Notes under the pieces: model-generated
Databases searched by the model: none
Told to the model about the DNA's origin: nothing
The model's input: the letters and a program-made list of their open reading frames with translations, nothing else
In this document: piece by piece, positions 1-33,415 of the stretch
Numbering within the stretch: the stretch's first letter is position 1
Layout: every line of letters starts with the position of its first letter
NCBI GenBank assembly: GCA_964576795.1
Contig: CAZNWT010000005.1
Coordinates: 17,696 to 81,695 of the forward strand
Source: an uncultured Victivallales bacterium
GTDB taxonomy: Bacteria > Verrucomicrobiota > Kiritimatiellia > UBA8416
Length of the DNA stretch: 64,000 bases
Direction: 5' to 3'
Made by a program: the position numbers and the translations under genes

Positions 1-963
<963 letters not shown>

Positions 964-1190: not shown

Positions 1191-2825
1191 ATGTCTAAGT
1201 TGACTAAGATTCTTATTAGTGAGGGCTTGATTTCTGCCGAACGCTTGGCCGAGGCCGAGGCGCTGGCAGCATCCTCGTATAGTCCATTGGTATCCGTCCT
1301 TGTGCAGCAAGCGTTTGTGGACGAGTCTGAGTTTCTTCGAGTCTATGGACGACTGCACGGCCTTGAGTTTGTTTCCTTGCGTGACATAACGGTTGATGCC
1401 GGTGCGGCTCGAAGCATTAGTGCCAAACTTGCTGCGCATTACCATATTGTTCCCATTCGCCTCACATCGGGAAGCATTACCATTGCGGTGTCTGACCCGC
1501 TTGATTTACGAGCCGCCGAAGATATTGAGACGAATTTGGGGCTACGCGTTGAACGTGTTTTGGCCTGTCGTGCCGACATTGAGGGGGCACTCCAACGGCA
1601 CTACGGTGTGGGTGCAGACACGGTCGAACGCATTTTGGCTCGGGAACCGGAGCGTGACGTTGAGACGCTTGAGTCTGATTCGTTGGACATTGAGCAACAG
1701 GCGTCCGATGCGTCGGTCGTACGGCTGGTAAATCAACTTCTCAAAGAAGCCATCAAGGATCGGGCAACGGACATTCATTTTGAAGTTCACCGTAACGGTG
1801 TGGTTGTACGGCGTCGTATAGATGGGATTCTCTACGATACGAATGTGTCGAGTCGGATGCTTTCGCTCTATCCCTCTATTGTCTCCCGCATCAAGCTGAT
1901 GGCGGGGCTCAATATTGTTGAGCGCCGGTTGCCTCAGGATGGGCGCGCCCGGGTCTCGATTGAGAGCCAGAATTTCGACCTGCGGGTTTCGATTGTGCCC
2001 GCAATGCATGGCGAAGATATTGTGATTCGCATTCTACCCTCTGCAATGATTTTTGATCTTGGCGAACTTGGGTTTAACGAAACGCAACTTTCTATGCTTG
2101 GGGGGTTGATTGAATCGCCCCACGGCATTTTGTTTGTCACTGGTCCCACGGGCAGTGGAAAGAGCACAACCCTGTATGCGTGTATGAGTCGTCTCAATAC
2201 GCGAGAGCGCAAGATTATTACGATTGAGGATCCGGTTGAGTATGAATTGCGCGGCATTACGCAGACGCAAGTCAATGCCAAGATCGGGTTAACCTTTTCG
2301 CATGCACTTCGTAGCATGTTGCGGCACGATCCCGACGTCATGATGGTGGGTGAGGTGCGAGATCGTGAGACCGCAGAAATTGCGGTGCAAACGGCGATGA
2401 CGGGACATCTTGTTTTGAGCACACTGCACACGAATGATGCAGCGGGGGGGGCGGCGCGATTGATCGATATGGGAATTGACCCCTATCTCATTACCTCGAC
2501 CGTGCAGGCGTTCATGGCGCAGCGGCTTGTGCGTACCATTTGCACAGACTGCCGGGAGTCCTATGAGGTCGACGGCCGCACGTTATATCGTGGGAAGGGG
2601 TGCGATCGTTGTAATCACTGTGGGTTCTGGGGGCGTATCGCCATATGCGAGTTCCTGCCGTTGACAGATGAAATTAGCGAATTGATTCTGGCAAAAGCGT
2701 CAGCGCATCAAATTCGTGAGCGTGCCAATGCATTGGGTATGAAAATGTTGATTGATGATGGTTGGGCTAAGGTTGAGCAAGGACTGACGACCGTCGAAGA
2801 GATTATGCGAGTTACAGCGGTCTAA
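1191..2825 (+). CDS. gspE: Type II secretion / type IV pilus assembly ATPase (GspE/PilB family)
   Basis: N-terminal GspE_N-like domain, Walker A GPTGSGKST, Asp and His boxes, and a C-terminal tetracysteine motif CTDC…CDRCNHC. Confidence 0.9.
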   Translation: MSKLTKILISEGLISAERLAEAEALAASSYSPLVSVLVQQAFVDESEFLRVYGRLHGLEFVSLRDITVDAGAARSISAKLAAHYHIVPIRLTSGSITIAVSDPLDLRAAEDIETNLGLRVERVLACRADIEGALQRHYGVGADTVERILAREPERDVETLESDSLDIEQQASDASVVRLVNQLLKEAIKDRATDIHFEVHRNGVVVRRRIDGILYDTNVSSRMLSLYPSIVSRIKLMAGLNIVERRLPQDGRARVSIESQNFDLRVSIVPAMHGEDIVIRILPSAMIFDLGELGFNETQLSMLGGLIESPHGILFVTGPTGSGKSTTLYACMSRLNTRERKIITIEDPVEYELRGITQTQVNAKIGLTFSHALRSMLRHDPDVMMVGEVRDRETAEIAVQTAMTGHLVLSTLHTNDAAGGAARLIDMGIDPYLITSTVQAFMAQRLVRTICTDCRESYEVDGRTLYRGKGCDRCNHCGFWGRIAICEFLPLTDEISELILAKASAHQIRERANALGMKMLIDDGWAKVEQGLTTVEEIMRVTAV

Positions 2826-2837
2826 TCGAGGGCACCG

Positions 2838-4046
2838 ATGCCGAGCTATATCTACAAGGCTAAAGAGGGGCCAAGCAAGACTGTTCAAGGGGAACTGATT
2901 GCAGAGTCCGAGGCGTCCGCGATTGCGCGTATTGAGGCGATGGACTTGATTCCCGTGTGGGTTCGTCCCAAGGGGGCGGGGCATGCGGTGAGCGCACGGC
3001 CTTCGCAACGTGGCATTCGTTCGCGCGACATATCCGTTCTTACTCGCCAGCTTGCAAGTATGTTGCGTTCCGGGGTTCCGATTCTGAGAGCCCTAAACAC
3101 GATTGGGGATCAAACCGAAAACCGGCGGTTGCAGGCTGTTATTAGTGACCTTGAGGCCTCCATTCGCGATGGCAGCATGTTGTCAGAAGGGATGCGGCGT
3201 TACAAAAAGCTGTTTCCAGATCTTTATGTCAACATGGTTGAGTCAGGCGAATCCGGAGGGGTTCTTGATACCATGCTCTTTCGACTTGCTGAAGCGGGGG
3301 AAGTTGAAGAAGAGAATCGCCGAAAAGTACAGGCAGCCATGGCTTATCCGGTGCTGGTTGCGGTTGTCGGTTTTATTACCGTTTTAGTGCTGCTGTCTTT
3401 TTTTATGCCACGTGTGGTCGTGCTGTTTGAGGGATATCAGCAATTGCCTCTCCCCACTCAGATTCTGATTGGGGTTAGCACCTTCTTCTCCAGATATTGG
3501 TATTGGCTTGTTTTTGCAGTGGTTTTGGTTGTTCTCGTCTTCCAACGTCTGGCGGCGTTGGACCGCGGACGCACCTTTGTGGATGGGCTGAAACTCCGGT
3601 TTCCACTGTTGGGTCGATTCTTGCGGGATGTTGATCTGGCACGCTTTGCCCGGACGTTTGCATTGTTGATTGCTTCCGGAGTCTCCATTGATCGTGTATT
3701 GCGGTTGAGTGCAAATTCTATTCATAATGCCGTTTTGCGTAACGAAGTGGAGTCGATCCGAACCCGAACGCTGAAGCATGGCATGACGCTTTCGGCAAGC
3801 ATTAAGGGCTCGGTATTCTTTCCCCCATTTGTTGGCAATATGTTGGCAGTGGGAGAGGAGACAGGGCACATTGATGAATCGTTGAATGAAGTTGCCCGTT
3901 TCTATGAGGGGTGCGTGGATCGACAGAGCCGTATGGCGACCTCTCTTATCGAACCCATACTCCTGCTTGTTGTCGGCCTGCTTGTTGGATTCATTGTGTT
4001 TGCCATGTTGTTGCCCATTTTTGAAATTGGGAGTGGGCTGCGGTAG
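2838..4046 (+). CDS. gspF: Type II secretion / T4P platform protein (GspF/PilC family)
   Basis: About 400 aa with a duplicated T2SSF-type domain architecture and three transmembrane segments. It lies directly after gspE. Confidence 0.85.
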   Translation: MPSYIYKAKEGPSKTVQGELIAESEASAIARIEAMDLIPVWVRPKGAGHAVSARPSQRGIRSRDISVLTRQLASMLRSGVPILRALNTIGDQTENRRLQAVISDLEASIRDGSMLSEGMRRYKKLFPDLYVNMVESGESGGVLDTMLFRLAEAGEVEEENRRKVQAAMAYPVLVAVVGFITVLVLLSFFMPRVVVLFEGYQQLPLPTQILIGVSTFFSRYWYWLVFAVVLVVLVFQRLAALDRGRTFVDGLKLRFPLLGRFLRDVDLARFARTFALLIASGVSIDRVLRLSANSIHNAVLRNEVESIRTRTLKHGMTLSASIKGSVFFPPFVGNMLAVGEETGHIDESLNEVARFYEGCVDRQSRMATSLIEPILLLVVGLLVGFIVFAMLLPIFEIGSGLR

Positions 4047-4055
4047 TCTGAGTAA

Positions 4056-4086
4056 ATCGGAAATTGGAAATTGGAAATTGGGAAAC
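4056..4086. repeat. Tandem GAAATTGG repeats
   Basis: cggaaattggaaattggaaattgggaaa. Related degenerate copies occur at 24948-25022 and reverse-complemented at 11228-11262. Confidence 0.6.
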
Positions 4087-4195
4087 AGAACCTGACATTT
4101 CATGCCAGCCAACCCCCTGTCGTCGTACCTCCGTCGGATTATACAGGGTGGAAACTTACGGGTACTAGGCGTCGTGATGAATTGGTGGTTATTTC

Positions 4196-4288
4196 AACGT
4201 CCAACAACCAACGTCCAACGCCCAACTTCCAAGAGAGGGTTCCTCTTCGTTTGGCGTTGGTTGTTGGACGTTGGTTGTTGGGCGTTCG
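4196..4288. repeat. Palindromic CCAACG-rich dispersed element, copy 1
   Basis: caacgtccaacaaccaacgtccaacgcccaac…gttggcgttggttgttggacgttggttgttgggcg forms a long hairpin. A related copy lies at 16316-16388. Confidence 0.65.
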
Positions 4289-5087
4289 ATTTGAGTTTCA
4301 GGTTTGGCGGGGCTGGGGAGTGGCGTGGTTGCTGATTCTGGTTGCCGCATCGACGCTCGCTGGAGCGACTCCCGATGTGTGGGACACCCTCAAAGGCAAG
4401 CACTTTATCGTTTCCCATCAGGGAAATGCAGCCTTTGCGGCAGAGGTTCTGCACCGGGCAGAGTTGTATTACGATTCAATTGTGCAGCAACTCGGGTTTA
4501 AGCGAGTTGATAACTTCTGGCTTTGGGAGCGTCGCGCCCGGATAAAGCTATATGCGAGTCGTCAGGCGTTTATCGAAAGCACGGGGGCTCCTGATTGGGC
4601 GACGGCCAAGGCCAATGTCCGTGACCGCACAATTGAATCCTTTGGTAACAGTAGGGTGTTTCTCGAATCCAGGCTTCCCCATGAGATGGCTCACCTTTTT
4701 TTTCGCGAATACATTGGATTCACGGGTGCGGTTCCGCTCTGGCTGGATGAAGGAGTTGCTCAGTGGTGTGAGTTTGAGCCTGGGCCATCTACGCCGCCCG
4801 CTTTGCGGAAGTGGATTCCGCTACGGGTGATGACGACCATGACTGTAAATGAAATTATGGATGTTGATCGGGCACAACTTTTCTATCGCGAATCCGCTTC
4901 TGTCGTTGAGTATTTGGTTACGACCTATGGCAAAGGTGCATTCACAAAATTTTGTCGACAGTTGCGGGATGGAAAACGTTTGGATAGGGCTTTGCGGTTT
5001 ACTTATCCAAACACCATCTCTACACTGGAGCTATTAGAACAACAATGGTCTGTGTGGCAGATTGCACGCAGTATTCGCAATCGCTGA
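4275..5087 (+). CDS. Secreted gluzincin-like metallopeptidase (Peptidase_MA-like; HEMAH…E), start uncertain
   Basis: HEMAHLF followed by WLDEGVAQ gives the HExxH + E zinc-binding signature, and there is a hydrophobic signal-like segment WLLILVAASTLAGA. The ORF is open from 4071, but the upstream part is repeat sequence. Alternative starts are TTG 4275/4278 or GTG 4320. Confidence 0.5.
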   Translation: MLGVRFEFQVWRGWGVAWLLILVAASTLAGATPDVWDTLKGKHFIVSHQGNAAFAAEVLHRAELYYDSIVQQLGFKRVDNFWLWERRARIKLYASRQAFIESTGAPDWATAKANVRDRTIESFGNSRVFLESRLPHEMAHLFFREYIGFTGAVPLWLDEGVAQWCEFEPGPSTPPALRKWIPLRVMTTMTVNEIMDVDRAQLFYRESASVVEYLVTTYGKGAFTKFCRQLRDGKRLDRALRFTYPNTISTLELLEQQWSVWQIARSIRNR

Positions 5088-5110: not shown

Positions 5111-5506
5111 ATGAATAAGCAGAGAGGATTCACGCTAATTGAGTTAATGATTGTCGTGATCATTATGGCGGCACTGGCTGGGATGGTATTGCCGCGCCTT
5201 CTTGACCGTGCTGATGATGCGAAGATCAATATTTCAAGAGGTGAGATTGCATCCATCACAATGGCGCTGAAGTTCTATAAACTGGACAACGGCTCCTACC
5301 CAGGGAATCTGAGTGCCCTGATGTCGAATGCCGATTCTGCAAACAACTGGAAGGGCCCCTATCTTGAGAAGGCTGCGGTTGACCCCTGGAAGCGAGCTTA
5401 TGAGTATCAGCGGCCGGGGCCCAATAATCCAACGTCCTTCGACTTGTGGTCAAAAGGTCCCGATGAGGCCAATAGTGATGATGATATCTCGAATTGGGAA
5501 GACTAG
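5111..5506 (+). CDS. gspG: Type II secretion major pseudopilin
   Basis: Prepilin leader MNKQRGFTLIELMIVV and GspG signature …W.GPYLE…DPWKRAYEYQRPG…FDLWSKGPDE. An RBS ggaagga lies upstream of the ATG at 5111. Confidence 0.85.
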   Translation: MNKQRGFTLIELMIVVIIMAALAGMVLPRLLDRADDAKINISRGEIASITMALKFYKLDNGSYPGNLSALMSNADSANNWKGPYLEKAAVDPWKRAYEYQRPGPNNPTSFDLWSKGPDEANSDDDISNWED

Positions 5507-5531
5507 GCTTTTGAATCGGTCTTCTTTTTCT

Positions 5532-5978
5532 GTGAGAACAACTTCTCGCGATGGGTTCACTCTTATTGAGGTGCTTATTGCTGTTGTCATCCTTTCGACG
5601 GGAATTGTTGTCGTGTTACAGGGATTGCAATCATCCCTGAGTGCCTTGGATGGTGCGGTGGAAAAGACGCGATCGGCAATGCTGTTGCAGGGGAAACTGG
5701 AAGAAGCCCAAGCGACTGCACTTGTTGGAGCAGACCCGTCAACGCTTGGCACGAGCGGTGGCTTTGCGGATCCTTTCGGTCGGTATCTCTGGCAACTGAA
5801 TTCTGTCTCTGCCCCGCTGTCGAGTATGGGTGGTGGGGTGGAAGGTGGCGGAGTGTTTTACGAAGTGAATGCCACGGTGTGGCGGGAGGGAAGTGTGCGC
5901 ACCTATTCGGCCGCAACACGCGTCTATGTGAGGCCTGAATTGGATGCTTCATTGGGGGATGTGGGAGGTTCTCTGTGA
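5532..5978 (+). CDS. Minor pseudopilin (GspH/I-like), GTG start inferred
   Basis: Prepilin-type N terminus …RDGFTLIEVLIAVVILS. The frame is open from 5328, but the leader length fits GTG 5532. Confidence 0.6.
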   Translation: MRTTSRDGFTLIEVLIAVVILSTGIVVVLQGLQSSLSALDGAVEKTRSAMLLQGKLEEAQATALVGADPSTLGTSGGFADPFGRYLWQLNSVSAPLSSMGGGVEGGGVFYEVNATVWREGSVRTYSAATRVYVRPELDASLGDVGGSL

Positions 5979-6565
5979 ATCGCGTTCGCCAGTCTGCCTT
6001 TACGTTGATCGAGCTGGTGGTGGTCTTGCTGATTATGGGCACTGTGGGCTCGGTTATTGTTGCCTGTTTTATGGGAGGCGTTCGTGCCTATGAACGGGCC
6101 CGTGATTTTGGTCGCGGAGAAACCGATGTTTACATCGCCTTTGAAATGTTGGAACGCGATCTGAAAAATGCGGTTTGGGTTCCCGGATTCCCTTTTATGG
6201 GAGAGCCCTCTTTGATGCAGTTTGCGAGCAAGCGGTCTGAGCCTGTCGAGGATGTAGGGATGGGCCTTGATGTCGTAAAAATTCAGTATCTGGAGCGTGA
6301 TGGGGATGGCGTTTCACGGTCTTCGTCGGGTTTCGGAGAAACGGTTGTGGGCGATTCTGAAGTGTGGGACACCTTGCTGGCCGGAGATGTTGCTATGTGC
6401 TTAGCCTTTAGTGAAGGTGCCGACGCGGGGCATCTTCCGACGTGGGTCGAGACGTGGCAGAGTGAATCAAACCTCCCTCGTCAGGTGCGCGTTCAGTTCA
6501 CAGGTGGGGAATTTGGTGACGCTGGTATTGAGCGCATTATTACAATTCCGGTGGCTGGGGAGTAG
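5975..6565 (+). CDS. Minor pseudopilin (GspJ/H-like)
   Basis: N terminus MNRVRQSAFTLIELVVVLLIMG is a prepilin methylation-type motif. The start overlaps the previous stop. Confidence 0.6.
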   Translation: MNRVRQSAFTLIELVVVLLIMGTVGSVIVACFMGGVRAYERARDFGRGETDVYIAFEMLERDLKNAVWVPGFPFMGEPSLMQFASKRSEPVEDVGMGLDVVKIQYLERDGDGVSRSSSGFGETVVGDSEVWDTLLAGDVAMCLAFSEGADAGHLPTWVETWQSESNLPRQVRVQFTGGEFGDAGIERIITIPVAGE

Positions 6566-6567
6566 GA

Positions 6568-7650
6568 ATGATCATGGGTGCCGCAAATTTTAAGGAGTGT
6601 TGCCCAAATCGAAAGAGCGCCTTCCTCCTTCAGAAATCTCGCTCCGGGGGGAGTGTTCTTATCCTTGTGTTGTGGGTTCTTTTCTTTCTGGTGGCCCTGA
6701 CCGTGGCTGTTGGAACTCACGTTTCAGCCGCTATTACCGCCGCCGAACGGCTGTGGTCGCGTATGGAAGGCCGCTCTCTTGCAGAGGCTGGTGTTCAGCA
6801 GGCGTTCGCGATAGCCATGCAGCAGACCAATGAGTGGGATGGTATCGCCCGTGACGCATGGAATCGTGATCTCTCGGCTTTTACTGATATTTCCATCGGT
6901 GATGGGTTGTGTTCTATCCACTATTGCACGGTTGGGGCCGATGGAAGCGTCGTAACGAACGCCGGTATTGTGGGTGAGGATGGGAAACTCAACCTCAATA
7001 CGATTGTGAAGAGCGATGAGTCGAAACTGGCGTTTGGGGTGCTGATGACAACGGTCGGCGAGCTTGACGCCGAGCGTGCTGATAAGGTCGTGGCAGCAGT
7101 GTCAGATTGGATTGACGAAGACGATGAAATATTGACAGGGGGAGCGGAGAGTGGCTACTATGCGAGTCTGTCACCCTCGTATAAGTGCGCCAACGCTCCG
7201 ATGCGTTGTATGAGTGAATTTAGGCTTGTTAAAGGGGTGAGCAGAGAGCTGTATACACGGCTGGTTTCCTGTTTAACCGTGTATGGGTCTGAGCTAGTGA
7301 ATGTGAACTGTGCACCCGAACCGGTTATAGCGGCTCTGGCACAAGCGCATGCGGAAGGGACGACCGATCTTGATGCCTGTGCGTCATTGGCGGAAAAAAT
7401 AGGGAATTTTCGTAAGGCCGGAGGGGCGTTTCGCGAATCTGATGATATTGGGAGTCCTCCCGAGGATATTGGGCTTACAGGAGATGAGCGCGCCTTGTTT
7501 AGGGGAATGCAGTCGGGACTATATTGGAGTTCAACCGCTTTTCGTGGGGTTTCCGCAGGTGTTTTTGAGGGTGAGGGGCATTCTGGGATGTCGATTGAGT
7601 TTGTTTTGGACACGGTAAGTGGAAGTTTTGTCTACTGGCAAGAACGGTAA
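6568..7650 (+). CDS. gspK: GspK-like minor pseudopilin
   Basis: N terminus …SGGSVLILVLWVLFFLVAL is the GspK-type variant leader. Its ~360 aa size and position after three pseudopilins fit GspK. Confidence 0.55.
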   Translation: MIMGAANFKECCPNRKSAFLLQKSRSGGSVLILVLWVLFFLVALTVAVGTHVSAAITAAERLWSRMEGRSLAEAGVQQAFAIAMQQTNEWDGIARDAWNRDLSAFTDISIGDGLCSIHYCTVGADGSVVTNAGIVGEDGKLNLNTIVKSDESKLAFGVLMTTVGELDAERADKVVAAVSDWIDEDDEILTGGAESGYYASLSPSYKCANAPMRCMSEFRLVKGVSRELYTRLVSCLTVYGSELVNVNCAPEPVIAALAQAHAEGTTDLDACASLAEKIGNFRKAGGAFRESDDIGSPPEDIGLTGDERALFRGMQSGLYWSSTAFRGVSAGVFEGEGHSGMSIEFVLDTVSGSFVYWQER

Positions 7651-7689: not shown

Positions 7690-9162
7690 ATGGGAAGCAA
7701 GGGTGCAAAGCTAAAACGTTCGGAGGGGGAGCCCCGCAAGATCGTCGTGCTTGTCGAGATTGGTAACGACTGGATCAAGCTGATCCAAGCCGAATCCAGT
7801 AAACGCGGCGTTACCCTTTCAAAGGTTCACCTTGAGCCGATTGACGTAGACACAAACGTTGTAGATAGCATTGCATCTGCGCTGAAAGCCAAGAAGTTCA
7901 GTATGACTGCGGTATTGACATGCCTTCCACGACAAGCGGTGAATCTGCGATTATTGGAGCTGCCGTCTACGGATAGTGCCGAAATAGCTGACATGGTCGA
8001 GCTTCAAATCGGTCGCCAAACGCCCTATTCCCGGGATGAGATTCTTTCCGACTACAAGCCGTTGGGACGCACACGACAAGGGACGTACACGCGAATTATG
8101 CTGGCAATCGTGCAGCGTAGCGTGGTGCGTGAACGTTTCTATGAAATCGAACAGGCCGGTCTGGATGTTGAACGCATGGGCGTCAGTTCTGAAGGGGTGT
8201 TGAATTGGTTTCTGTACCGAATGAAGGATAAGCCTCAGGATAAGGCTGTGGCCCTTATTGATGTGGATTCCTTTTATACGCAAGTGCTTGTGCTCCAGCA
8301 TGGACGCGTCATTTTCACCAAGAGCATTCTGGTAGGAGCCAAACAGTTGCTGGAGACGAGCGAAGAAAGTCGCGGCCAGCTTACCCAAGAGATTCAGAGT
8401 GCATTTCAGTCTTGCCGCAGTGAGCTTCGTGCTGGCGAGATTGAATCCATTGTTCTGTCGGGTTCAGGTGTTAATATTGAGGGGTTGGCTGAGGAGTTGA
8501 GCAGCGGGCTGTCGCTGCCTTGCGAAGGCCTTGATTCTTTGGCGGACGTCAAATTGGGCAAGGGGGCGGGAGATTTGGGTGATCCTCGTTATACAACAGC
8601 CTCTCTGACGGCCCTCATTGGCATGGCGTTGAATCCTGACGCCCTTGAATTTGATTTAATTCCAGATGTGGTTCGTATGCGCAGGACGCTGCTGCATAGC
8701 GCGTTATCGTCCACGATGTTGGCGGCTCTGGTTATGGCGGCGATGGTGTCCGCCTCGCTGTATGCGATGTTGTCCTATGCGTTCAAAACGCATCGTCTTA
8801 ACGCATTGCGTGAAGCTGTGGCCATAACGCAACCCGCTGTGGTGAAGGTTGAGCGTATGCTTGAGGTCATCCGCGAAACCAACGAACGCCAGGACTCGCG
8901 TTTTTCCATGGTGAATCTGTTACCAGCCATTCACGGTTGCGTCCCCAAAGATGTCTATTTTGAGTCCATTGATGTTGATGTAGAGAAAAAAAATGTCTCT
9001 TTGTCTGGAACAGCACCTGCCCGAAAGGATATTCGGGACCTGCTTAAAATGCTTGTGGATTCACCGTTTTTTGGCGATGTGAGTGAAGATGGACGCGTCA
9101 CCATGGATAAGGATGGACGCTTTAAGTTTCGGGCTGTTGCCAAGTTTGAGGAGGATTCCTGA
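7690..9162 (+). CDS. GspL-like / PilM–PilN-type inner-membrane assembly protein
   Basis: An actin-like cytoplasmic domain of ~330 aa (LSGSGVNIEGLAEEL) is followed by one TM (LAALVMAAMVSASLYAML) and a ~130-aa C-terminal periplasmic region. Confidence 0.55.
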   Translation: MGSKGAKLKRSEGEPRKIVVLVEIGNDWIKLIQAESSKRGVTLSKVHLEPIDVDTNVVDSIASALKAKKFSMTAVLTCLPRQAVNLRLLELPSTDSAEIADMVELQIGRQTPYSRDEILSDYKPLGRTRQGTYTRIMLAIVQRSVVRERFYEIEQAGLDVERMGVSSEGVLNWFLYRMKDKPQDKAVALIDVDSFYTQVLVLQHGRVIFTKSILVGAKQLLETSEESRGQLTQEIQSAFQSCRSELRAGEIESIVLSGSGVNIEGLAEELSSGLSLPCEGLDSLADVKLGKGAGDLGDPRYTTASLTALIGMALNPDALEFDLIPDVVRMRRTLLHSALSSTMLAALVMAAMVSASLYAMLSYAFKTHRLNALREAVAITQPAVVKVERMLEVIRETNERQDSRFSMVNLLPAIHGCVPKDVYFESIDVDVEKKNVSLSGTAPARKDIRDLLKMLVDSPFFGDVSEDGRVTMDKDGRFKFRAVAKFEEDS

Positions 9163-9716
9163 TGCTCGGTCGACTATCGCAACTTCCACCTCGGGAACAG
9201 GTCGGACTTGGCCTCGCCTGTGTTTTTGTGCTCTTGCTTATTTCGGATCAAGTTGTCGTGAAGCCTGTGTCTAAAATTTTAGATCGAATGGGTGTTGAAA
9301 TCGAGGTCGCTGAAAAGCAGGATGATGATAATCGCGAGATGCTTCAGTATGAGACCTCGGTTGAGGTGCGGTATGAACAGGTAAAGAACCTTATTGGGGT
9401 TTCTACGTCCGAGCAGGAGAGTGTTGAGCGTTTCAAGAGCAGTATTGATGAAATGGCGCTGCGCAATGCTATTAGCTTAAAGTCCATGCAGCATCTTACC
9501 CCTGAGCCAACTGACTTTTTGGTGACCTACTTCGTGGAAATTAGTGATTTTGAGGCCGAGACTTTAGCGTTGATCAATTTTCTGCAGGAAATTCAATCGG
9601 CACCGGGCATGCTGCGGGTCAAGAAGATGGCGTTGTCATCGCAGGATGAAACCACGATTGTGAAGGGCTCATTGGTCATCTCCAAAGTCATGACTCTCGC
9701 AGGGGAACAGGAGTAA
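9162..9716 (+). CDS. GspM/PilO-like bitopic membrane protein
   Basis: N-terminal TM (LGLACVFVLLLISDQVVV) followed by a coiled segment and a C-terminal α/β region. The start overlaps the upstream stop (ATGA). Confidence 0.4.
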   Translation: MLGRLSQLPPREQVGLGLACVFVLLLISDQVVVKPVSKILDRMGVEIEVAEKQDDDNREMLQYETSVEVRYEQVKNLIGVSTSEQESVERFKSSIDEMALRNAISLKSMQHLTPEPTDFLVTYFVEISDFEAETLALINFLQEIQSAPGMLRVKKMALSSQDETTIVKGSLVISKVMTLAGEQE

Positions 9717-9719
9717 GGC

Positions 9720-11066
9720 ATGGTCGATGAACTGACTCAAGTTGAAGATAAAAATCTGTCCGAGCTTGATGAGCTACGCGAAGCGATTAGCACTGAACAA
9801 GGGCAGGGCCGTCGGGTCATGCTCTGGTTCATCACGGTATTCCTCTTTATTCTTTTGGTCGTGTTGGCCATGTTCCTTTTTTCTGGAATCTATATCCTGC
9901 GTAACTCCCAGCAAATGGTTAATGCTGTCGAGGATGTTGGTGATATGGCAACCGTCAACACCTTTCATCTCAGTAGTTTTACAAACAGACTTGCGCAGAT
10001 TGAGGGCGTCCAGATGCGCATCTCGGCAAAGCTCAATTCTGCAGACTTCGCCCGGGGGCAGGGATTTGATGCATTGGCATCCGAGCAACGCAAGCATGCA
10101 AAATGGATTGATGCGCGAGATGCTGCCGTTGAGCGCGACAAGCGTAACATCAATGATAGACTGCTTAAGCTTGGTGAACAGAATGCAGTAAACGCCCGTC
10201 AGCTTGCAGAAATTCAGAAGAAATTGGATCAGTTTGTTTCTGCAGGAGGCGTCGTTGTGGTGCCTGGCAATACAACATCGAAAATGTCCACTACGTCAGC
10301 TCCGGGAGAGGGTGATGCCGCCGAGTTGGTGGATTTTGGCATTATATCTCAGGAGTCCCTTGACGAGATGTTTACGGCGGCGTTGGCGTCTGTTGCTGAT
10401 CCCGTTCGTGAGCGGGATACCCCCGAGACCATATCTGTGGTGACATTTCCGAATGAGGATCGCTACGAAGGTGAATTTGTGAACGGGCTGATGCATGGCT
10501 GGGGATCGTACACCTACAAAAACGGCGATTGCTATGAAGGGGAATATGCGAATGATCTTAAGCAGGGGCGTGGGACGCTCACAACTGTTAATGGGGAGCG
10601 CTATGTTGGCGAGTTTGCCAACGACATGAAACAGGGAAAAGGCAGCCTCTCGTGTGCTGATGGGTTGCGATACATTGGCGATTTTCGAGACGACTTGATG
10701 ACGGGGAAAGGTGTGGCCTTTTACGCGAATGGAAACAAGTATGCCGGCGATTTTGTCAACGGGGTCCACCATGGGCGTGGTGCGCTTCGGTTTTTCAATG
10801 GTGACATCTACGATGGCGAATTTCGTAATGGCGTACGTACCGGGCGTGGTGCATATGCGTTTTCCGATGGTGGGCGTTACATGGGGGAATTTGTAAACGG
10901 CGTTCGTCATGGTATGGGCCGCTATATCTACCCCGATGGTGCCGAGTATATTGGCCCCTTCAAAAATGGCAAGAAGCATGGCGAAGGGATTCGTGTTTAC
11001 CCTAATGATGCCCGTCTTAAGGGACTATGGCGCGATGACGAATTCATCCGTGATCTTCAGAAATAA
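9720..11066 (+). CDS. Membrane-anchored protein with 8 tandem MORN repeats
   Basis: Single TM (VMLWFITVFLFILLVVLAMFLF), a coiled-coil region, then eight 23-aa repeats of the YxGEFxNGxxHGxGxxxxxxGxx MORN pattern at 10441-10995. Confidence 0.8.
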   Translation: MVDELTQVEDKNLSELDELREAISTEQGQGRRVMLWFITVFLFILLVVLAMFLFSGIYILRNSQQMVNAVEDVGDMATVNTFHLSSFTNRLAQIEGVQMRISAKLNSADFARGQGFDALASEQRKHAKWIDARDAAVERDKRNINDRLLKLGEQNAVNARQLAEIQKKLDQFVSAGGVVVVPGNTTSKMSTTSAPGEGDAAELVDFGIISQESLDEMFTAALASVADPVRERDTPETISVVTFPNEDRYEGEFVNGLMHGWGSYTYKNGDCYEGEYANDLKQGRGTLTTVNGERYVGEFANDMKQGKGSLSCADGLRYIGDFRDDLMTGKGVAFYANGNKYAGDFVNGVHHGRGALRFFNGDIYDGEFRNGVRTGRGAYAFSDGGRYMGEFVNGVRHGMGRYIYPDGAEYIGPFKNGKKHGEGIRVYPNDARLKGLWRDDEFIRDLQK

Positions 11067-11276: not shown

Positions 11277-11304
11277 CCTAAGGGAAACCCTTAGGTCTTT
11301 TTTT
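11277..11304 (+). terminator. Rho-independent terminator
   Basis: The perfect hairpin cctaaggg-aaa-cccttagg is followed by tcttttttt. Confidence 0.7.
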
Positions 11305-11305
11305 G

Positions 11306-11334
11306 TTGACTATCGGTGTCGCTTTTGAAATAAT
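11306..11334 (+). promoter_or_regulatory. Putative σ70-type promoter for the secreted-protein cassette
   Basis: TTGACT, a 17-nt spacer, then AATAAT, about 200 nt upstream of the 11536 start codon. Confidence 0.3.
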
Positions 11335-11461: not shown

Positions 11462-11496
11462 GTACTAAGGGAAACCCCTAGTACTGCTATTTTGAG
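11462..11496 (+). promoter_or_regulatory. Second near-identical hairpin plus U-tract in the 5' leader (attenuator-like)
   Basis: gtactaaggg-aaa-cccctagtac is followed by tgctattttg. It lies ~40 nt upstream of the RBS (gagaggga) and ATG at 11536. Confidence 0.4.
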
Positions 11497-11535: not shown

Positions 11536-12888
11536 ATGAAACGATTGACTGAGTATTTAGGGGTATTTCTGCTTGGGTTAGTATTGACCACTGCCGTAGC
11601 CCGCGCAGCAGTAAGTTTACCGTTTAGTGATGGTTTTGAGGATCAAGCCATCGGTGCCGCTCCATCGAATGTCTGGGTGATAGGAGCTGCTGATATCTAT
11701 GTTACGAATACCTCCCCGGCCATCGGCACTCAATCTCTCCAAATGGATGAGGGCGATGAGGACCCGGAGCTTACGCTTGCGGTAGGCGGAGGGGAGAGCA
11801 ACGTTTACTGGGTTGGCTCGGCAAAGGTCACGAAGGGTTCATCCGATCCCAGCATCGGCACCTCGGTGGCCGCCTTCTACATCACTACCAACAATGTGGT
11901 TCGGGCGAGTGATGGCGGAGACTGGACAAATTTGTATACACTTTCCAAGGATGCCGAAACTAACTGGATTAGCTATGCCGTGCATTTGGACTATACCAAC
12001 GGGATCGGGATGTGGGATCTCTACTTGGCTGAAACGAATAGTGCCGCAAAACTCACAAAGCGTAACTCGGCCCCGCTGGATTTTGCTGCCCAGGGAGCCG
12101 GTCTTGTAGAATTCGAGGTCACCGGAAATACGTCTCTTGATGCCGTCGCTATGAATATTGGATTCACGGCTGTGGGCGTTGCAACCTCGCCTGATGAACT
12201 TTCGGTAAGAACCGCCTCGCACAACTCAAACATATGGTATTCAGCGCGTGTGGGCGATGTTGGGGCGGCTAAATTTTTGGAGCCGGATGGCGATTACCTG
12301 AAGGAAGGGCTCGCTGTCGGCGATATCATCAAGTTCTACGATACCGATGCCTGGGAGACGTATAAGATTGAAGAACTCGGTGGTGTTCGCGTGTGGAGTG
12401 CGGTGAATTCAGCCGCTACTCCTATACTGTCTACTACTCAGAAGGTTGCAGGTGCTATGCCGATTACCAATGGTATTCCCTACTGGATTGTATATGCCAG
12501 TACAGCGACTGATGTCCCTCTGTTCTTCCCGTATGACCATGATCCGGCAGTGATAGCAGAAGAAACGCTTAGTATGGGCAGTTGCACGATTAATTCAAAC
12601 GGAACCGCCGCTGGTTGGACTACGCTCAGGTGGACATCGGCCAACACGCGGTCCCTGACCGCAGCCGGGTTGACGGATGCTGGTTTTGATCCAGATGTCC
12701 CTGACGGGATGGTGTGCATCTCAATCGAAAGTGGCACATGGAAATTTGTGCGCTCGGTGTGGGATAATGGCCAAGACCGCTGGGAGGTCCGTGGGGGCAA
12801 GGTTTCAACTGATGTATTTCAGCCAGACGAGGAAATCTGGTTATACAATCCAGGTGACGATGATATCACTTGGACAATCATCGATTAG
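11536..12888 (+). CDS. Secreted protein of unknown function
   Basis: Sec signal peptide MKRLTEYLGVFLLGLVLTTAVARA and a G/S/T/W/D-rich mature region. The RBS is gagagggag. Confidence 0.6.
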   Translation: MKRLTEYLGVFLLGLVLTTAVARAAVSLPFSDGFEDQAIGAAPSNVWVIGAADIYVTNTSPAIGTQSLQMDEGDEDPELTLAVGGGESNVYWVGSAKVTKGSSDPSIGTSVAAFYITTNNVVRASDGGDWTNLYTLSKDAETNWISYAVHLDYTNGIGMWDLYLAETNSAAKLTKRNSAPLDFAAQGAGLVEFEVTGNTSLDAVAMNIGFTAVGVATSPDELSVRTASHNSNIWYSARVGDVGAAKFLEPDGDYLKEGLAVGDIIKFYDTDAWETYKIEELGGVRVWSAVNSAATPILSTTQKVAGAMPITNGIPYWIVYASTATDVPLFFPYDHDPAVIAEETLSMGSCTINSNGTAAGWTTLRWTSANTRSLTAAGLTDAGFDPDVPDGMVCISIESGTWKFVRSVWDNGQDRWEVRGGKVSTDVFQPDEEIWLYNPGDDDITWTIID

Positions 12889-12922
12889 AAGCGTGTGAAT
12901 TCCAGCAAAATAAGGAGCAATG

Positions 12923-13916
12923 CATGAAGCCGATAGAAAAAATTAAGACGGTAGTGGGTGTCTTCGTTGCGAGCGCAGTGGTACTCGCAATTATGCTGAG
13001 CGCAGAGCGTTGTCAGGCGCAACCGAGCCCCGGTGTTGAGGGCGAGGATTGGGGGGTGCTTTCTGAAGAAGGGGCGGCAACCGTTTCCTATGGCGTTGAT
13101 GCGGTATCTGTTGATTTCGCCGCACGCAATACGTTAACACAACCGACTGCGAAGTACCGAACGATTTCCGTTTGTGTCGGTACCCAGAGCCCATTGTTCA
13201 CGGGAAATTATACGGATTCTGGGGTAACGGGCGTGGGATTCAGTCTGGCCGGAGTGGGCGAGGCGAAACCGGGCGTGATGGTTACGCTGGTAGGAAAAAA
13301 TGACCTGACATGGTATAATAGTTCAGTTGAGCTGAGCGAAGTGGATGGCGAGTGGCAGCCGAACAACATTTCATTTGAATATGAAGATGGATGGTATCGC
13401 GATGCTTTCAACACGGAAGCCAATTGGAATGCAGCCCTAACGGATGTGAAGTCTATTAGCGTGTATATTATGCAAAGTGGAAACCCTGCGCAGACCGGCT
13501 ATTTAAAGAGCTTCAGACTCCTGAACGCTCAGCAGACCGCCACTACCGCGGGGACACTCACGGCCCGTGTTCTTGCTTGGTTTGGGGTTGAGAATGAGCG
13601 CGATGCCGACAGGGGGCTTGATTCTGACGGCGATGGCATTTCAGACTACCTTGAGATTACAATGACGGAGACGGATCCGGGCGATGCGAATTCTGTTCTG
13701 AAAGTCGATGTGCAGAGGTTAGCGGTGGGGCTGCAATTGAAATGGGTTGTTGCTACCGGCAGATTGTATGATGTGTACCGGTGTGAGAATCTGGGCTCCG
13801 ATTTTACAGTTATCGCGAGTCGCATCGAAGCACTCTCGACTGGTCTTCTTGAGTATAACGATGTGACGGCAACTGGCGAAGGCCCCTATTTCTATCGAGT
13901 TAAACAAGTACAGTAG
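12923..13916 (+). CDS. Secreted protein with a calcium-binding-like DxDxDG motif
   Basis: RBS aaggag then ATG 12923. The signal peptide is MKPIEKIKTVVGVFVASAVVLAIMLSA, and the motif is DSDGDGISDYLE. Confidence 0.55.
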
Positions 13917-13938: not shown

Positions 13939-14742
13939 ATGAATATCCATTTCAAATACGTTTTACTTTTGACGGTGGCAGTATCCATGTTTACAGCGGT
14001 GGGCGAGGCTGCGAGCATTGTCGAGGATTGGACGGCCGGTGGTATCCGAGATTGGGATATTGCGAACGCGTTAGGAGGGGCTGCTTATGGTGGGCTTACG
14101 GAAGGTTCTCTTGGTGTTGGTCACGCTAACGCACTGATCATTTCGGGAGGAGCATCGTTAGTCGGACGTAGTGATGCAATCTCAGCCGATGATGCTGGGC
14201 TTTCAACCGACTTCATCGGAAACTACGCCACTGGTGTAGGTCTTGAAGGCGGCACCATCGGTGCTATTGAAGGGCTCTCTTTTGATTTCTATGTGGATTC
14301 GGGACCGGCTTCGGGTGGCCCCAGCGGTATCACCCTGTTTTTTGATACATCGTATGACGTTGGGTCGCCTGGTGGTGGCACTTGGTTTTTGGACATCACC
14401 GGTGTTGCGAACGGATGGGGTTCTTATGGCTCAAATATCGACACGTTAAGCCTCGCTTCTGTCTCCTACGGTGACTGGTATTCTGGTGAGTTTAGCACAG
14501 TTGGCGATTGGAGCGGTTCACTGGCGTTAGTCACGGATATTGGTATTGAGCTTGATTATCTTAGCTCGATAGCTGGACAGATTTACGGTGTCGACAATTT
14601 CACGCTAAGCGAGGGTAACTTCGCGGTTCCAGAGCCTGAGACCTACCTTGTGCTCGGAATGGCGCTGCTGTCTGTTGCCGTTGTCTTCCGCAAGCGGATC
14701 AGCGAGTCTTTGGCTGAAGCTCGTGCAATGTTGATGGTTTAG
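13939..14742 (+). CDS. PEP-CTERM-anchored secreted protein (exosortase substrate)
   Basis: N-terminal signal peptide. The C terminus VPEPETYLVLGMALLSVAVVFRKR matches the PEP-CTERM motif + TM + basic tail. Confidence 0.7.
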   Translation: MNIHFKYVLLLTVAVSMFTAVGEAASIVEDWTAGGIRDWDIANALGGAAYGGLTEGSLGVGHANALIISGGASLVGRSDAISADDAGLSTDFIGNYATGVGLEGGTIGAIEGLSFDFYVDSGPASGGPSGITLFFDTSYDVGSPGGGTWFLDITGVANGWGSYGSNIDTLSLASVSYGDWYSGEFSTVGDWSGSLALVTDIGIELDYLSSIAGQIYGVDNFTLSEGNFAVPEPETYLVLGMALLSVAVVFRKRISESLAEARAMLMV

Positions 14743-30351: not shown

Positions 30352-30710
30352 GGAGGGCGCGGCTTGTTGCTGCTGGTGAGGTCATTGTTCCTCGCCTTCT
30401 GATTGCGACCCGAATGCTGGATCGAATGCGAGGTCTGTTGGGACGTGCGAGTCTTCCAGAGGGAACCGGAATGTTTCTGAAACCGTGTGGTTCTATCCAC
30501 ACGGTGGGAATGCATTTTTCACTGGATGTTATTTTTCTGGATCGTCAGCAACGAGTTGTTCGTACGGCACAGAGGTTACACCCAAATTGGTTTGCGCTTG
30601 GCGGGCACAGCGCACATGCGGTTGTGGAGTGTGCGACCGGGTGGTTGGATGTTTCATCACTTACGCGAGGGGATCGCCTAGAGATCCTCTTCGATACTGT
30701 CGGTGCGTAA
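30348..30710 (+). CDS. DUF192 (COG1430) protein
   Basis: RMRGLLGR…GMFLKPCGSIHTVGMHFSLDVIFLD matches the DUF192 pattern. Confidence 0.6.
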   Translation: MRRARLVAAGEVIVPRLLIATRMLDRMRGLLGRASLPEGTGMFLKPCGSIHTVGMHFSLDVIFLDRQQRVVRTAQRLHPNWFALGGHSAHAVVECATGWLDVSSLTRGDRLEILFDTVGA

Positions 30711-32042
30711 CGGCTTTGCGGATAGAATTTCGTTATGTGGTATCGTTTTGAAGATGCCGGGATGTGTTTCCAGTTTTACGTTTTTCTGTGCGTCGACCTC
30801 AATCAGAAGCCCCGTGTAGACTTCTGTGCTGGTTTTGATTTCGTAGTTCGGAATGAAACGGCGTTTTAATTTGAAATGACGCGTTAGAATTTGGTCTCGT
30901 ACGATATCAATGCCTGCCTTACTTTCGTAGTAACCGACCTTTGTGAGGGTGATCACATGGCCCCCCGGGGGCAGCAGGTCGATTGATAACTCCTGTGAGA
31001 TTCGATCCGTAGCGTTGGTTCCTGTTTCTGTGCTTCCCACGCTCTTGCCATCGAGTACTACATCAACCTCGGCGGGTTCCGTCGTGATTCTGAGTTCTCC
31101 CGCATTTCGCTGGAGGCGAAACTCTTCAACAATATGCTGGTCGCGGCCAACGTCTATGTTGCGCAGTAGTATGTCGTGTGCTGCCATTTCTGCCCGGACA
31201 CGATAGGTGTTTGGAAGCAGAGTTTCCAGTTTGACAGGGGATTTTCCGCGGAATTGATTATCAACATAGATACGGGCACCAACAGGGATAGATACAATCG
31301 TGAGATCTGATGGAATGGGCTTGAGGATTGCCGTGATGGTTTGCGTTTCGCCGGCGGCGAGTTTGAACGATTCGTTGTAGAGTTCGTAACCCTCGAGAGT
31401 AAGTTCAAGTCTGAGGTCTCCAGACGGGATGCGATCAACAGAGCACGGCGTTGTTCCTCGCGCGATTCCGCTAAGGGTTACAGTGGCGCCAGTGGGTTCC
31501 GAGTCGAGCTTTAGCGTGGCTGAGTCGGAGGTTAGCGTTATGTCGTGTTTTGTGGGGCAACGTCCCTCAATGGTGAGTTCAATCTCTTTGGATATGTAAC
31601 CGGGTTTGTGTAGGCGGGCTCGGTAGTGCCCCAGTGGGAGATCCGCAATGAGAAGCGGGGTTGCGCCTCGATGTGCTCCGTCGATCTCCACCTCAGCACC
31701 GACGGGTATAGAGTGAATGAGAATAAGCCCACGTGTGGCGCTCAGGCGAAATTCGCGTGATAGCTTCTCCATCGAATCCAAGGTGACCGTTTCGCGAATG
31801 GGGTCATAATCGCGTTTCTCGACGAGCATCAGATGTTTTCCAGGGGCGAGGTCTGTCAGGGTTAAGGGGGTGACGCCGCGTGGGGTTTCGTCAATGGTTA
31901 CTGTTGCCCCGAGGGGATCGGATTCGATATGAAGCTGCGCGGGTGCCGCTAGAGCGGCGGACCGTGCGAACGTTGCGAGGAGTATTCCACAGATGAGACG
32001 CGTAAGGGTGCTGCGGGTGCATTTGTATCGGAGTGCTGTCAT
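30678..32042 (-). CDS. PEGA-domain repeat protein (secreted or envelope)
   Basis: Signal peptide. Roughly five consecutive PEGA-type domains, each about 70 aa with a PxGAxV… core (e.g. SDPLGATVTIDETPRGVTP, SIPVGAEVEIDGAHRGATP, SIPVGARIYVDNQFRGKSP). Confidence 0.7.
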   Translation of the reverse strand: MTALRYKCTRSTLTRLICGILLATFARSAALAAPAQLHIESDPLGATVTIDETPRGVTPLTLTDLAPGKHLMLVEKRDYDPIRETVTLDSMEKLSREFRLSATRGLILIHSIPVGAEVEIDGAHRGATPLLIADLPLGHYRARLHKPGYISKEIELTIEGRCPTKHDITLTSDSATLKLDSEPTGATVTLSGIARGTTPCSVDRIPSGDLRLELTLEGYELYNESFKLAAGETQTITAILKPIPSDLTIVSIPVGARIYVDNQFRGKSPVKLETLLPNTYRVRAEMAAHDILLRNIDVGRDQHIVEEFRLQRNAGELRITTEPAEVDVVLDGKSVGSTETGTNATDRISQELSIDLLPPGGHVITLTKVGYYESKAGIDIVRDQILTRHFKLKRRFIPNYEIKTSTEVYTGLLIEVDAQKNVKLETHPGIFKTIPHNEILSAKPLRTDSIEEDL

Positions 32043-33331: not shown

Positions 33332-33415
33332 AGTACCTCTCTCGAAACTGTAGCAGATGGTGTATAGAGCGACAAGCCTTCTGCGACGGGATTAGGGTTA
33401 TGGAGCTTCGTATAA

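Follow-up and report, generated by a model that had tools for sequence, protein, structure and literature searches.

What does a protein built of MORN repeats do at the end of an operon for a type II secretion system (T2SS)? The question is raised by a 64,000-nucleotide stretch of DNA from an uncultured Victivallales bacterium (GenBank assembly GCA_964576795.1, contig CAZNWT010000005.1, positions 17,696 to 81,695; the whole stretch is referred to as the window), in which an intact open reading frame (ORF) of 448 codons at 9720-11066 on the forward strand encodes a MORN-repeat membrane protein and follows a series of gsp genes. We concluded that this protein is probably an accessory part of the T2SS, previously undescribed. 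The reading that we favor, to which we assign a probability of roughly 55%, is that it serves a Kiritimatiellota-type T2SS as an accessory subunit, specific to one clade, and faces the periplasm. The coordinates of the gene, its parts, and its neighbors are listed in Table 1, and related loci and proteins are cited by handles (L and P numbers, respectively).

The C-terminal half of the protein is a MORN array

The Pfam MORN model (PF02493) matched the 448-residue protein over seven stretches with a score of 154.7 bits against a cut-off of 22.5 (E = 8.4e-47), and this was the sole Pfam assignment of the full-length sequence at E <= 0.01; no NCBIfam model covers the protein. Using a regular expression for the MORN signature of tandem 23-residue units, YxGx(W/F)xxGxxxGxG, we located eight repeats starting at residues 249, 272, 295, 318, 341, 364, 387, and 410, that is, with a period of exactly 23 residues. 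Hydropathy analysis revealed a single hydrophobic segment at about residues 34 to 58, with the Kyte-Doolittle maximum at 35-53. An earlier note on this DNA, made from the sequence alone, had described a 448-residue bitopic protein with one transmembrane (TM) segment and eight 23-residue MORN repeats, and the ORF, Pfam, regular-expression, and hydropathy results all agree with that description.

An AlphaFold2 model of the protein, for which 46 homologues were used as input, had a mean predicted local distance difference test (pLDDT) score of 81, rising to >90 across the MORN array. The model consists of a continuous helix at residues 13-169 (the membrane segment included), a disordered stretch at 171-207, a short helix at 211-224, and nine beta-hairpins at 248-445, which comprise the eight MORN repeats and a pseudo-repeat and are preceded by a flanking strand at 239-242. 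The elongated sheet of antiparallel beta-hairpins typical of MORN proteins is present in this predicted (not solved) structure. When the model was compared with the PDB using Foldseek, the best matches were MORN1 dimerization modules of Toxoplasma, Trypanosoma, and Plasmodium (E ~1e-23, TM-score 0.83-0.92, 35-40% identity), and axonemal MORN proteins and junctophilins ranked after them, with junctophilin-1 and -2 at E values of 1e-15 to 1e-13. No chain from a T2SS or a type IV pilus was present among the top 50 of the 87 PDB matches (E <= 0.001). Structure prediction and fold search, which had been proposed as a check, confirmed the MORN fold in the model by its matches to MORN1 and the junctophilins, and the C-terminal half of the protein is a bona fide MORN array, showing all three defining features.

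Two general statements about MORN repeats that accompanied the first description of this gene call for correction. The repeats are not otherwise eukaryotic, as dozens of bacterial phyla carry them, and their bacterial occurrence is also stated by Sajko et al. 2020 (PMC7725318). Their role as lipid- or membrane-binding modules has been questioned (PMC7725318; PMC8916002); they have been characterized as modules for protein-protein interaction and tail-to-tail dimerization, with doubtful membrane binding (PMC7725318), and their concave groove has been found to accommodate a channel peptide (PMC8916002).

The link between the MORN gene and gspL/gspM is conserved

About 80 full-length homologues of the MORN protein were found, with identities of 29-100%, from sources labeled as Kiritimatiellae, Verrucomicrobia, Lentisphaerae, 'Victivallales', and metagenome bins of the Planctomycetes-Verrucomicrobia-Chlamydiae (PVC) group; their source names read 'hypothetical', 'MORN repeat-containing', or 'FtsL', and nothing further. 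Loci were regarded as evaluable if they belonged to GTDB species representatives with a full-length homologue and if upstream DNA was available (n = 26), and gspL and/or gspM was located directly 5' of the MORN gene in all 26 of them. In L021 and L027, tblastn yielded gspL and not gspM, and the unassigned gap there fits a gspM gene. The same arrangement was observed in three further contigs examined individually (L001-L003, L005-L006), and a 347-residue variant with fewer MORN repeats (three Pfam stretches) is also encoded 3' of a GspM homologue. Moreover, the block from gspG to gspM together with the MORN gene was intact in L005/L006 and L010-L012 despite changes in gspE, gspF, and both flanks, and the spacing between gspM and the MORN gene was 3 nucleotides in the window and 47 nucleotides in L001, with an overlap of the two genes in L005. 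As a control, we inspected 52 loci of other phyla that match the MORN half alone, and the number of T2SS genes within 10 kb was 0. These data indicated that the link of the MORN gene to the secretion genes is conserved; co-occurrence next to gspL and gspM in related genomes was a check that the earlier note had proposed.

A second sample was assembled by picking loci via GspL and not via the MORN protein. The MORN gene was 3' of gspM in 17 of the 21 evaluable loci with a GspL >=36% identical to that of the window and in 0 of the 28 loci with a GspL <=34% identical to it. In a neighbor-joining, midpoint-rooted tree of 106 GspL sequences, a single clade contained all MORN-positive loci (45/45), and all evaluable MORN-negative loci (32/32) were outside that clade. 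Membership of a gsp operon that is conserved across diverged genomes, which served as our criterion for a T2SS component, was thus observed both in the species-representative set (26/26) and in the GspL clade (45/45). Since only one clade of the GspL tree has the MORN gene, the protein is not a core part of the T2SS but an addition specific to that clade, where it has been kept. On the simplest reading, the MORN gene would have been acquired once, as a new 3'-terminal gene of the operon, and strictly kept as the GspL sequences drifted apart to ~33% identity.

The MORN-negative sister clusters keep the layout of an atp operon followed by gspE to gspM. A single conserved substitute for the MORN gene was considered for these clusters and rejected, the gene after gspM being heterogeneous: unrelated genes are usual, and a d1-like secreted protein, an OEP protein, an ABC transporter, DnaX, an SLT protein, and a TM-coiled-coil-beta protein were also encountered.

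Among these occupants, a protein of ~450 residues is encoded after gspM in L136 (9240-10637), L161 (9169-10518), and L138 (8546-9643). A TM helix follows its short N-terminus, and next come a coiled coil of ~330 residues, which includes a Pro/Ala stretch, and, at the C-terminus, a small beta domain that matches FlgT_C weakly. Its architectural logic is the same as that of the MORN protein, with no sequence similarity between the two. In L095 the position after gspM is taken by an SLT lytic transglycosylase (8189-9352).

Predicted topology and a proposed mode of action

The number of Lys and Arg residues within the 15 residues flanking the TM helix averaged 4.6 on the N-terminal side and 1.8 on the C-terminal side. 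The N-terminal side was the richer one in 45 of the 46 MORN-protein homologues, and a conserved ER.R.RR motif with an invariant R31 lies N-terminal to the helix. Since more Lys and Arg residues precede the helix than follow it, the positive-inside rule predicts a cytoplasmic N-terminus and a periplasmic C-terminal MORN array. The N-terminus is likewise inside in GspC, GspL, and GspM, and GspC forms a trimer with the latter two (PMC11981180).

On the reading that we favor, the MORN gene, standing last in the operon, would share a transcript with gspM and be coupled to it in translation, as predicted from the sequence, and its product would be inserted into the inner membrane via the one N-terminal helix in an N-in/C-out orientation, following the positive-inside rule. 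By analogy with the GspC-GspL-GspM trimer, the TM segment and the helix of ~110 residues could be neighbors of GspL and GspM, which are bitopic as well, within the assembly platform, and form a stalk there. A flexible linker of ~40 residues would then bear the eight-repeat MORN sheet, a predicted fold, and this sheet may serve as a protein-binding, possibly dimerizing periplasmic arm, for which the periplasmic domains of the secretin, the cell wall or outer membrane, and secreted cargo are candidate partners.

Several points weigh against a subunit of this kind. Conserved synteny demonstrates a functional link, not structural membership, and the MORN gene is not essential to this type of T2SS, because sister clusters of the same layout work without it. 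The locus L115 is nested in the MORN-positive clade, yet carries another secreted-protein gene after gspM; it is too short to count as evaluable, and it probably reflects secondary loss or relocation of the MORN gene. The GspL tree is a rough one, built by neighbor joining with midpoint rooting and without support values. The predicted topology has a single basis, the positive-inside rule, and the suggested placement beside GspL and GspM is drawn by analogy. Finally, the 'coiled coil' that the earlier note had assigned to the protein was upheld in part: the helix is long in the prediction and matches coiled-coil profiles weakly, and it may be a coiled coil, judging from a single-chain model and those weak matches.

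A more far-reaching reading, which we consider less likely than not, is that the protein could be a bacterial, periplasmic tether of the junctophilin type. It would be anchored in the inner membrane beside GspL and GspM, would cross the periplasm with its helix and linker, and would place the MORN sheet on a secretin or another outer-membrane partner, providing GspC-like coupling via an unrelated fold. If true, a MORN-based part would be on record for the first time in a bacterial trans-envelope machine.

Kiritimatiellota and their relatives are polysaccharide degraders that rely on exported enzymes. A T2SS is one of the routes of export listed for their first member to be cultured (Spring et al. 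2016; PMC5148204), and our literature search found no paper joining MORN with T2SS or pilus terms, which bears out the remark that MORN repeats had not been described in this context. The loci analyzed here represent a T2SS subtype without nearby genes for a secretin, GspC, or a prepilin peptidase, in which one clade appears to have gained, and has strictly kept, a MORN membrane protein. Should this protein belong to the machine, it would show that an unrelated repeat fold can serve to rebuild the connector or accessory layer of a T2SS in the periplasm, MORN repeats would have their first defined bacterial, extracytoplasmic setting, and the MORN domain would offer a handle for finding the outer-membrane partner of these systems.

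Comparison with known components and alternative explanations

The N-terminal halves of 21 diverse members of the family were searched with Pfam at E <= 1, and T2SSC, T2SSN, PilP, FimV, and GspB were absent from the matches, which were scattered over TM-rich and coiled-coil families. Comparison of an N-half profile using hhalign gave a probability of 1.9% for Escherichia coli GspC (TM segment only), 1% for E. coli GspB, and <=2% for the window's own GspM, and the same profile, searched against all PDB sequences, matched coiled-coil proteins alone, at E >= 0.001. The N-terminal half was identified as GspC, GspB, PilP, or GspN in none of these tests, and the suggestion that it is not a canonical GspC, PilP, or FimV domain was borne out by Pfam, hhalign, and the PDB profile search alike. 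A canonical domain in this half and a MORN gene not conserved next to gspL and gspM were the two observations named in advance as contrary to the earlier proposal, and neither was made.

Among 1.84 billion representative proteins, the N-half profile retrieved 135 at E <= 1e-3, namely, the MORN family itself, shorter MORN-bearing variants, and a MORN-less family whose likeness to the anchor of the MORN protein is weak (E 1e-8 to 1e-4). Members of this last family (P0186, P0189, P0196, P0197, and others) are 250-350 residues long; a conserved 'SFPVLKAFQDYLEAER..R.RR' motif and a TM segment are followed by a coiled coil and a long region rich in Pro and Ala, and the C-terminus carries an 'IPWRV.IP' motif. 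We set this family aside as evidence on the MORN protein, both of the contexts checked (L090 and L091) not being T2SS.

In classical T2SS operons (pul, eps; order C-D-E-F-G-H-I-J-K-L-M-N), gspN follows gspM. The 'GspC/PilP slot' to which the gene had been assigned is therefore, in T2SS gene order, the position of GspN and not that of GspC, and the PilP part of the assignment holds only in type IV pilus order, in which GspL is equated with PilM plus PilN and GspM with PilO. GspN resembles the MORN protein in being encoded directly after gspM, in its bitopic build with a large periplasmic part, and in its patchy distribution and accessory status; however, the Pfam T2SSN model gave no match, and the periplasmic part, a long helix bearing a MORN array, differs from the GspN fold. 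PilP differs in being a lipoprotein with a beta-sandwich of the homology region (HR) type, whereas the MORN protein has no lipobox and begins with 33 hydrophilic residues followed by a TM anchor, and the PilP Pfam model matched neither the MORN protein nor the N-terminal halves. GspB and OutB are comparable as accessory, bitopic inner-membrane proteins that vary among lineages, and the periplasmic part of OutB reaches the secretin and peptidoglycan (PMC9239104). GspB works via an HR domain, however, and the model of the MORN protein contains no HR-like fold.

Missing components were searched for in two ways. Pfam was run on nearly all window ORFs of >=150 residues, with precomputed Pfam matches used for the contig flanks, and E. 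coli GspA, GspB, GspC, GspD, and GspO were used as phmmer queries against every ORF of >=60 residues in the window and in 2.1 Mb of related loci. The Pfam models for secretins and prepilin peptidases matched none of the window ORFs tested, and the 10-kb flanks on either side, which belong to the same 102-kb contig, yielded no such call. With phmmer, neither GspD and GspO of E. coli nor its GspA and GspB matched anything in the window or in the 2.1 Mb of loci, whereas the positive controls (E. coli GspE, GspF, GspG, and GspK) did match. The lack of a secretin and of a prepilin peptidase in the 64 kb, pointed out previously, was thereby corroborated. E. coli GspC also gave no match in the window or the 2.1 Mb of loci, a weak negative, since E. 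coli GspL and GspM miss as well. Near the MORN-negative sister clusters, phmmer likewise detected no secretin, GspC, or GspO. Because these clusters lack gspC and gspD as well as the MORN gene, the absence of gspC from the cluster predates the gain of the MORN gene, and GspC and GspD are perhaps encoded elsewhere in the genome.

These findings bear on the alternative that survives best, which we nevertheless consider unlikely: the MORN protein as a functional replacement of GspC that links the GspL/GspM platform to the secretin, its MORN array standing in for the N0-binding HR domain and perhaps taking over the cargo role of the PDZ/2P domain. No recognizable GspC was found in the window or in the related loci, and the MORN protein is built like GspC, in which the TM helix is followed by another helix and a disordered linker, and a beta-rich HR domain extends to the secretin (PMC11981180). 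The two are bitopic proteins with a short N-terminus that is cytoplasmic in GspC and predicted to be so in the MORN protein, arrange TM helix, helix, disordered linker, and beta-rich periplasmic domain in this order, and are encoded in T2SS operons. Nevertheless, the MORN protein has neither an HR nor a PDZ/2P domain (the model consists of helix, linker, and MORN sheet), an HR-like fold was found neither in the AlphaFold2 model nor among the Foldseek matches, and the two proteins share no sequence or profile similarity. The MORN gene lies after gspM and not before gspD, and it is not universal in its own T2SS subtype. The claim that the protein stands 'instead of GspC' is thus unproven, because the protein is clade specific and the sister systems also lack gspC.

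The fold matches suggest another possibility, which we regard as rather improbable, namely, a junctophilin-like tether between two membranes, anchored in the inner one and crossing the periplasm by its helix and linker, in which the MORN array docks on the inner leaflet of the outer membrane, a lipoprotein, or peptidoglycan. Such a tether, with the same low probability, would fix the position of the machine or the spacing of the envelope, as GspB/OutB or FimV-type anchors do. Junctophilins contain the same four modules in the mirror order: they begin with eight MORN repeats and a pseudo-MORN, continue with an alpha-helical and then a divergent, disordered region, and end in a lone TM anchor (PMC8916002). 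Junctophilin-1 and -2 are strong fold matches, and the genes after gspM in MORN-less clusters include envelope-related ones (those for the TM-coiled-coil-beta protein in L136 and L161 and for the SLT protein in L095). Junctophilins and MORN1 (PDB 7RW4, 7RXE, 6T4D, 6T4R, and 6T6Q) share the MORN fold with the window protein, but the latter is bacterial, has its TM segment first, is predicted to be periplasmic, and is genetically tied to a secretion machine. The likeness to junctophilins is architectural only. In addition, membrane binding by MORN repeats is disputed, as cited above, and no peptidoglycan- or lipid-binding motif was detected in the protein.

Slightly less probable still is that the gene is a passenger of the operon, encoding a general bitopic coiled-coil protein of the envelope or division type that merely shares the T2SS transcript. 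This would be compatible with the Joint Genome Institute label 'cell division protein FtsL' on homologue P0020, with the occurrence of distant MORN-less relatives of the N-terminal half in the non-T2SS contexts of L090 and L091, and with the dispensability of the MORN gene in sister clades. A passenger is difficult to reconcile, however, with adjacency to gspM in all 45 evaluable clade loci, which survives rearrangement of the flanks, with the tight or overlapping spacing of the two genes, and with a cluster that contains no division or cell-wall genes.

A reversed topology, in which a cytoplasmic MORN array would regulate or scaffold GspE or the cytoplasmic domain of GspL, accords with the cytoplasmic location of all structurally characterized (and eukaryotic) MORN proteins matched here, but is very improbable given the basic cluster ahead of the helix in 45 of 46 homologues, a short N-terminus that carries no N-terminal signal for export, and the N-in orientation of GspL, GspM, and GspC alike.

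Organization of the operon and its surroundings

The operon reads gspE-gspF-(Peptidase_MA_2)-gspG-two minor pseudopilins (I/J-like)-gspK-gspL-gspM-MORN gene, all on the same strand. The series gspE-F-G-(H/I/J)-K-L-M reported earlier agrees with the Pfam and NCBIfam assignments except that the Peptidase_MA_2 gene had been overlooked. GspL-like proteins of the 485-residue PilM_2-PilN type make up about 100 clusters. From gspE to the MORN gene, intergenic gaps are <=39 nucleotides. The ATG of the MORN gene lies 3 nucleotides past the gspM stop codon, with AGGAG upstream of it, and the gspM and MORN ORFs are in the same frame with a stop codon between them. A 469-nucleotide gap 3' of the MORN gene holds a terminator-like hairpin and a promoter-like site. 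In view of the tight upstream gaps and this wide gap with its two predicted signals, the MORN gene is predicted to be the last gene of the operon.

Table 1. Features of the MORN gene and the gsp operon in the window
Feature	Position	Strand	Evidence
MORN-repeat bitopic protein, 448 residues; predicted last gene of the operon	9720..11066	+	ORF call, Pfam, AlphaFold2, repeat regular expression
Predicted cytoplasmic N-terminus, residues 1-33, ending in conserved ER.R.RR; R31 invariant	9720..9818	+	alignment A1, positive-inside count
Lone transmembrane helix, residues 34-58	9819..9893	+	hydropathy, conservation, model pLDDT ~90
Long helix, residues 59-169, predicted periplasmic coiled-coil stalk; W129 nearly invariant	9894..10226	+	AlphaFold2 helix 13-169; weak matches to coiled-coil proteins alone
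Disordered linker, residues 171-207, length-variable, poorly conserved	10230..10340	+	pLDDT <50; gappy in alignment A1
Eight consecutive 23-residue MORN repeats, residues 249-432	10464..11015	+	regular expression, Pfam, Foldseek vs MORN1 (TM-score 0.83-0.92)
C-terminal pseudo-MORN hairpin (degenerate ninth), residues 433-448; W437 invariant	11016..11063	+	model strands 432-438 and 441-445; alignment A1
gspE, secretion ATPase	1191..2825	+	Pfam T2SSE E = 4.8e-130, plus MshEN domain
gspF, polytopic platform protein	2838..4046	+	Pfam T2SSF E = 2.7e-61
Peptidase_MA_2 metallopeptidase gene, start codon uncertain	4071..5087	+	PF13485 E = 2.2e-10; HEMAH and DEGVAQW motifs
gspG, major pseudopilin	5111..5506	+	Pfam T2SSG and N_methyl; start from gene call in L087
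Minor pseudopilin, weakly GspI-like	5478..5978	+	Pfam N_methyl; NCBIfam gspI E = 2e-6, under family cut-off
Minor pseudopilin, weakly GspJ/H-like	5975..6565	+	Pfam N_methyl; weak T2SSJ match
gspK	6574..7650	+	Pfam T2SSK_1st E = 3.9e-22; NCBIfam T2SS_GspK E = 5e-31
gspL-like, PilM_2 + PilN fusion	7690..9162	+	Pfam PilM_2 E = 1.7e-19, PilN E = 1e-7
gspM	9162..9716	+	Pfam T2SSM E = 1e-6; NCBIfam GspM E = 1e-4, under family cut-off
Terminator-like hairpin and T-run, 210 nucleotides past the MORN stop codon (predicted)	11277..11305 (hairpin 11277-11295)	+	consensus scan: 8-bp stem, 5 GC pairs, then TCTTTTTTTG
Promoter-like site before the downstream secreted-protein trio (predicted)	11306..11334	+	consensus scan: TTGACT-17-AATAAT with TG ahead

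A second hairpin is present in the same gap on the reverse strand (11462-11484), with a core, CTAAGGGAAACCC..TAG, nearly the same as that of the forward-strand hairpin at 11277-11295. It lies ~130 nucleotides downstream of the promoter-like site, just ahead of the next ORF. The two hairpins could be copies of a repeated palindrome, or else a pair of terminators serving both directions.

The HEMAH and DEGVAQW motifs of the Peptidase_MA_2 protein fit the HExxH plus ExxA pattern of gluzincins, marking it as a zinc metallopeptidase. A gene for such a protein occupies the same position between gspF and gspG in L001/L002, L007/L008, L025, L027, L029, L030, and L093, and not in every cluster. Its architecture differs from that of Gcp16 (Horvathova et al.), the only hydrophobic segment of the window protein being N-terminal to the peptidase domain, and this placement of the segment suggests a periplasmic enzyme.

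Downstream of the MORN gene and behind their own promoter-like site are three genes for signal-peptide proteins (11536-12888, 12870-13916, and 13939-14742, all on the forward strand), the first of 450 residues without a Pfam match, the second of 348 residues with a weak TSP3_bac match, and the third of 267 residues with a PEP-CTERM anchor. The trio is kept 3' of the MORN gene in many loci, among them L003, L007, L008, L016, L021-L023, L026, L029, L030, and L064, and a relative of its first protein is encoded directly 3' of gspM in some MORN-less clusters (L094, L115, and L169-L171). These proteins could be cargo or surface proteins of the secretion system.

On the other side, an ATP synthase operon ends immediately 5' of gspE (window 22-963, forward strand; L087, 3024-9773), and it is unusual in having three genes for alpha/beta-type subunits. 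The atp-gspE junction is common to MORN-positive and MORN-negative clusters (e.g., L001, L003, L007, L013, L022, L036, L093, and L094).

On the same contig, ~3.7 kb past the 3' end of the window, a second type IV filament-like cluster follows rpoA and rplQ (L088, 13662-20744). It consists of a T2SSF gene, five N_methyl pilin-like genes with two Pfam-less ORFs interspersed, and a 714-residue Pfam-less ORF; no ATPase, secretin, or peptidase gene was seen in the stretch retrieved. Within the window, three adjacent genes at 30678-34984 on the reverse strand encode a protein with five PEGA domains, an FHA/YscD-like protein, and a GAF-sigma54 activator, and are unrelated to the MORN gene.

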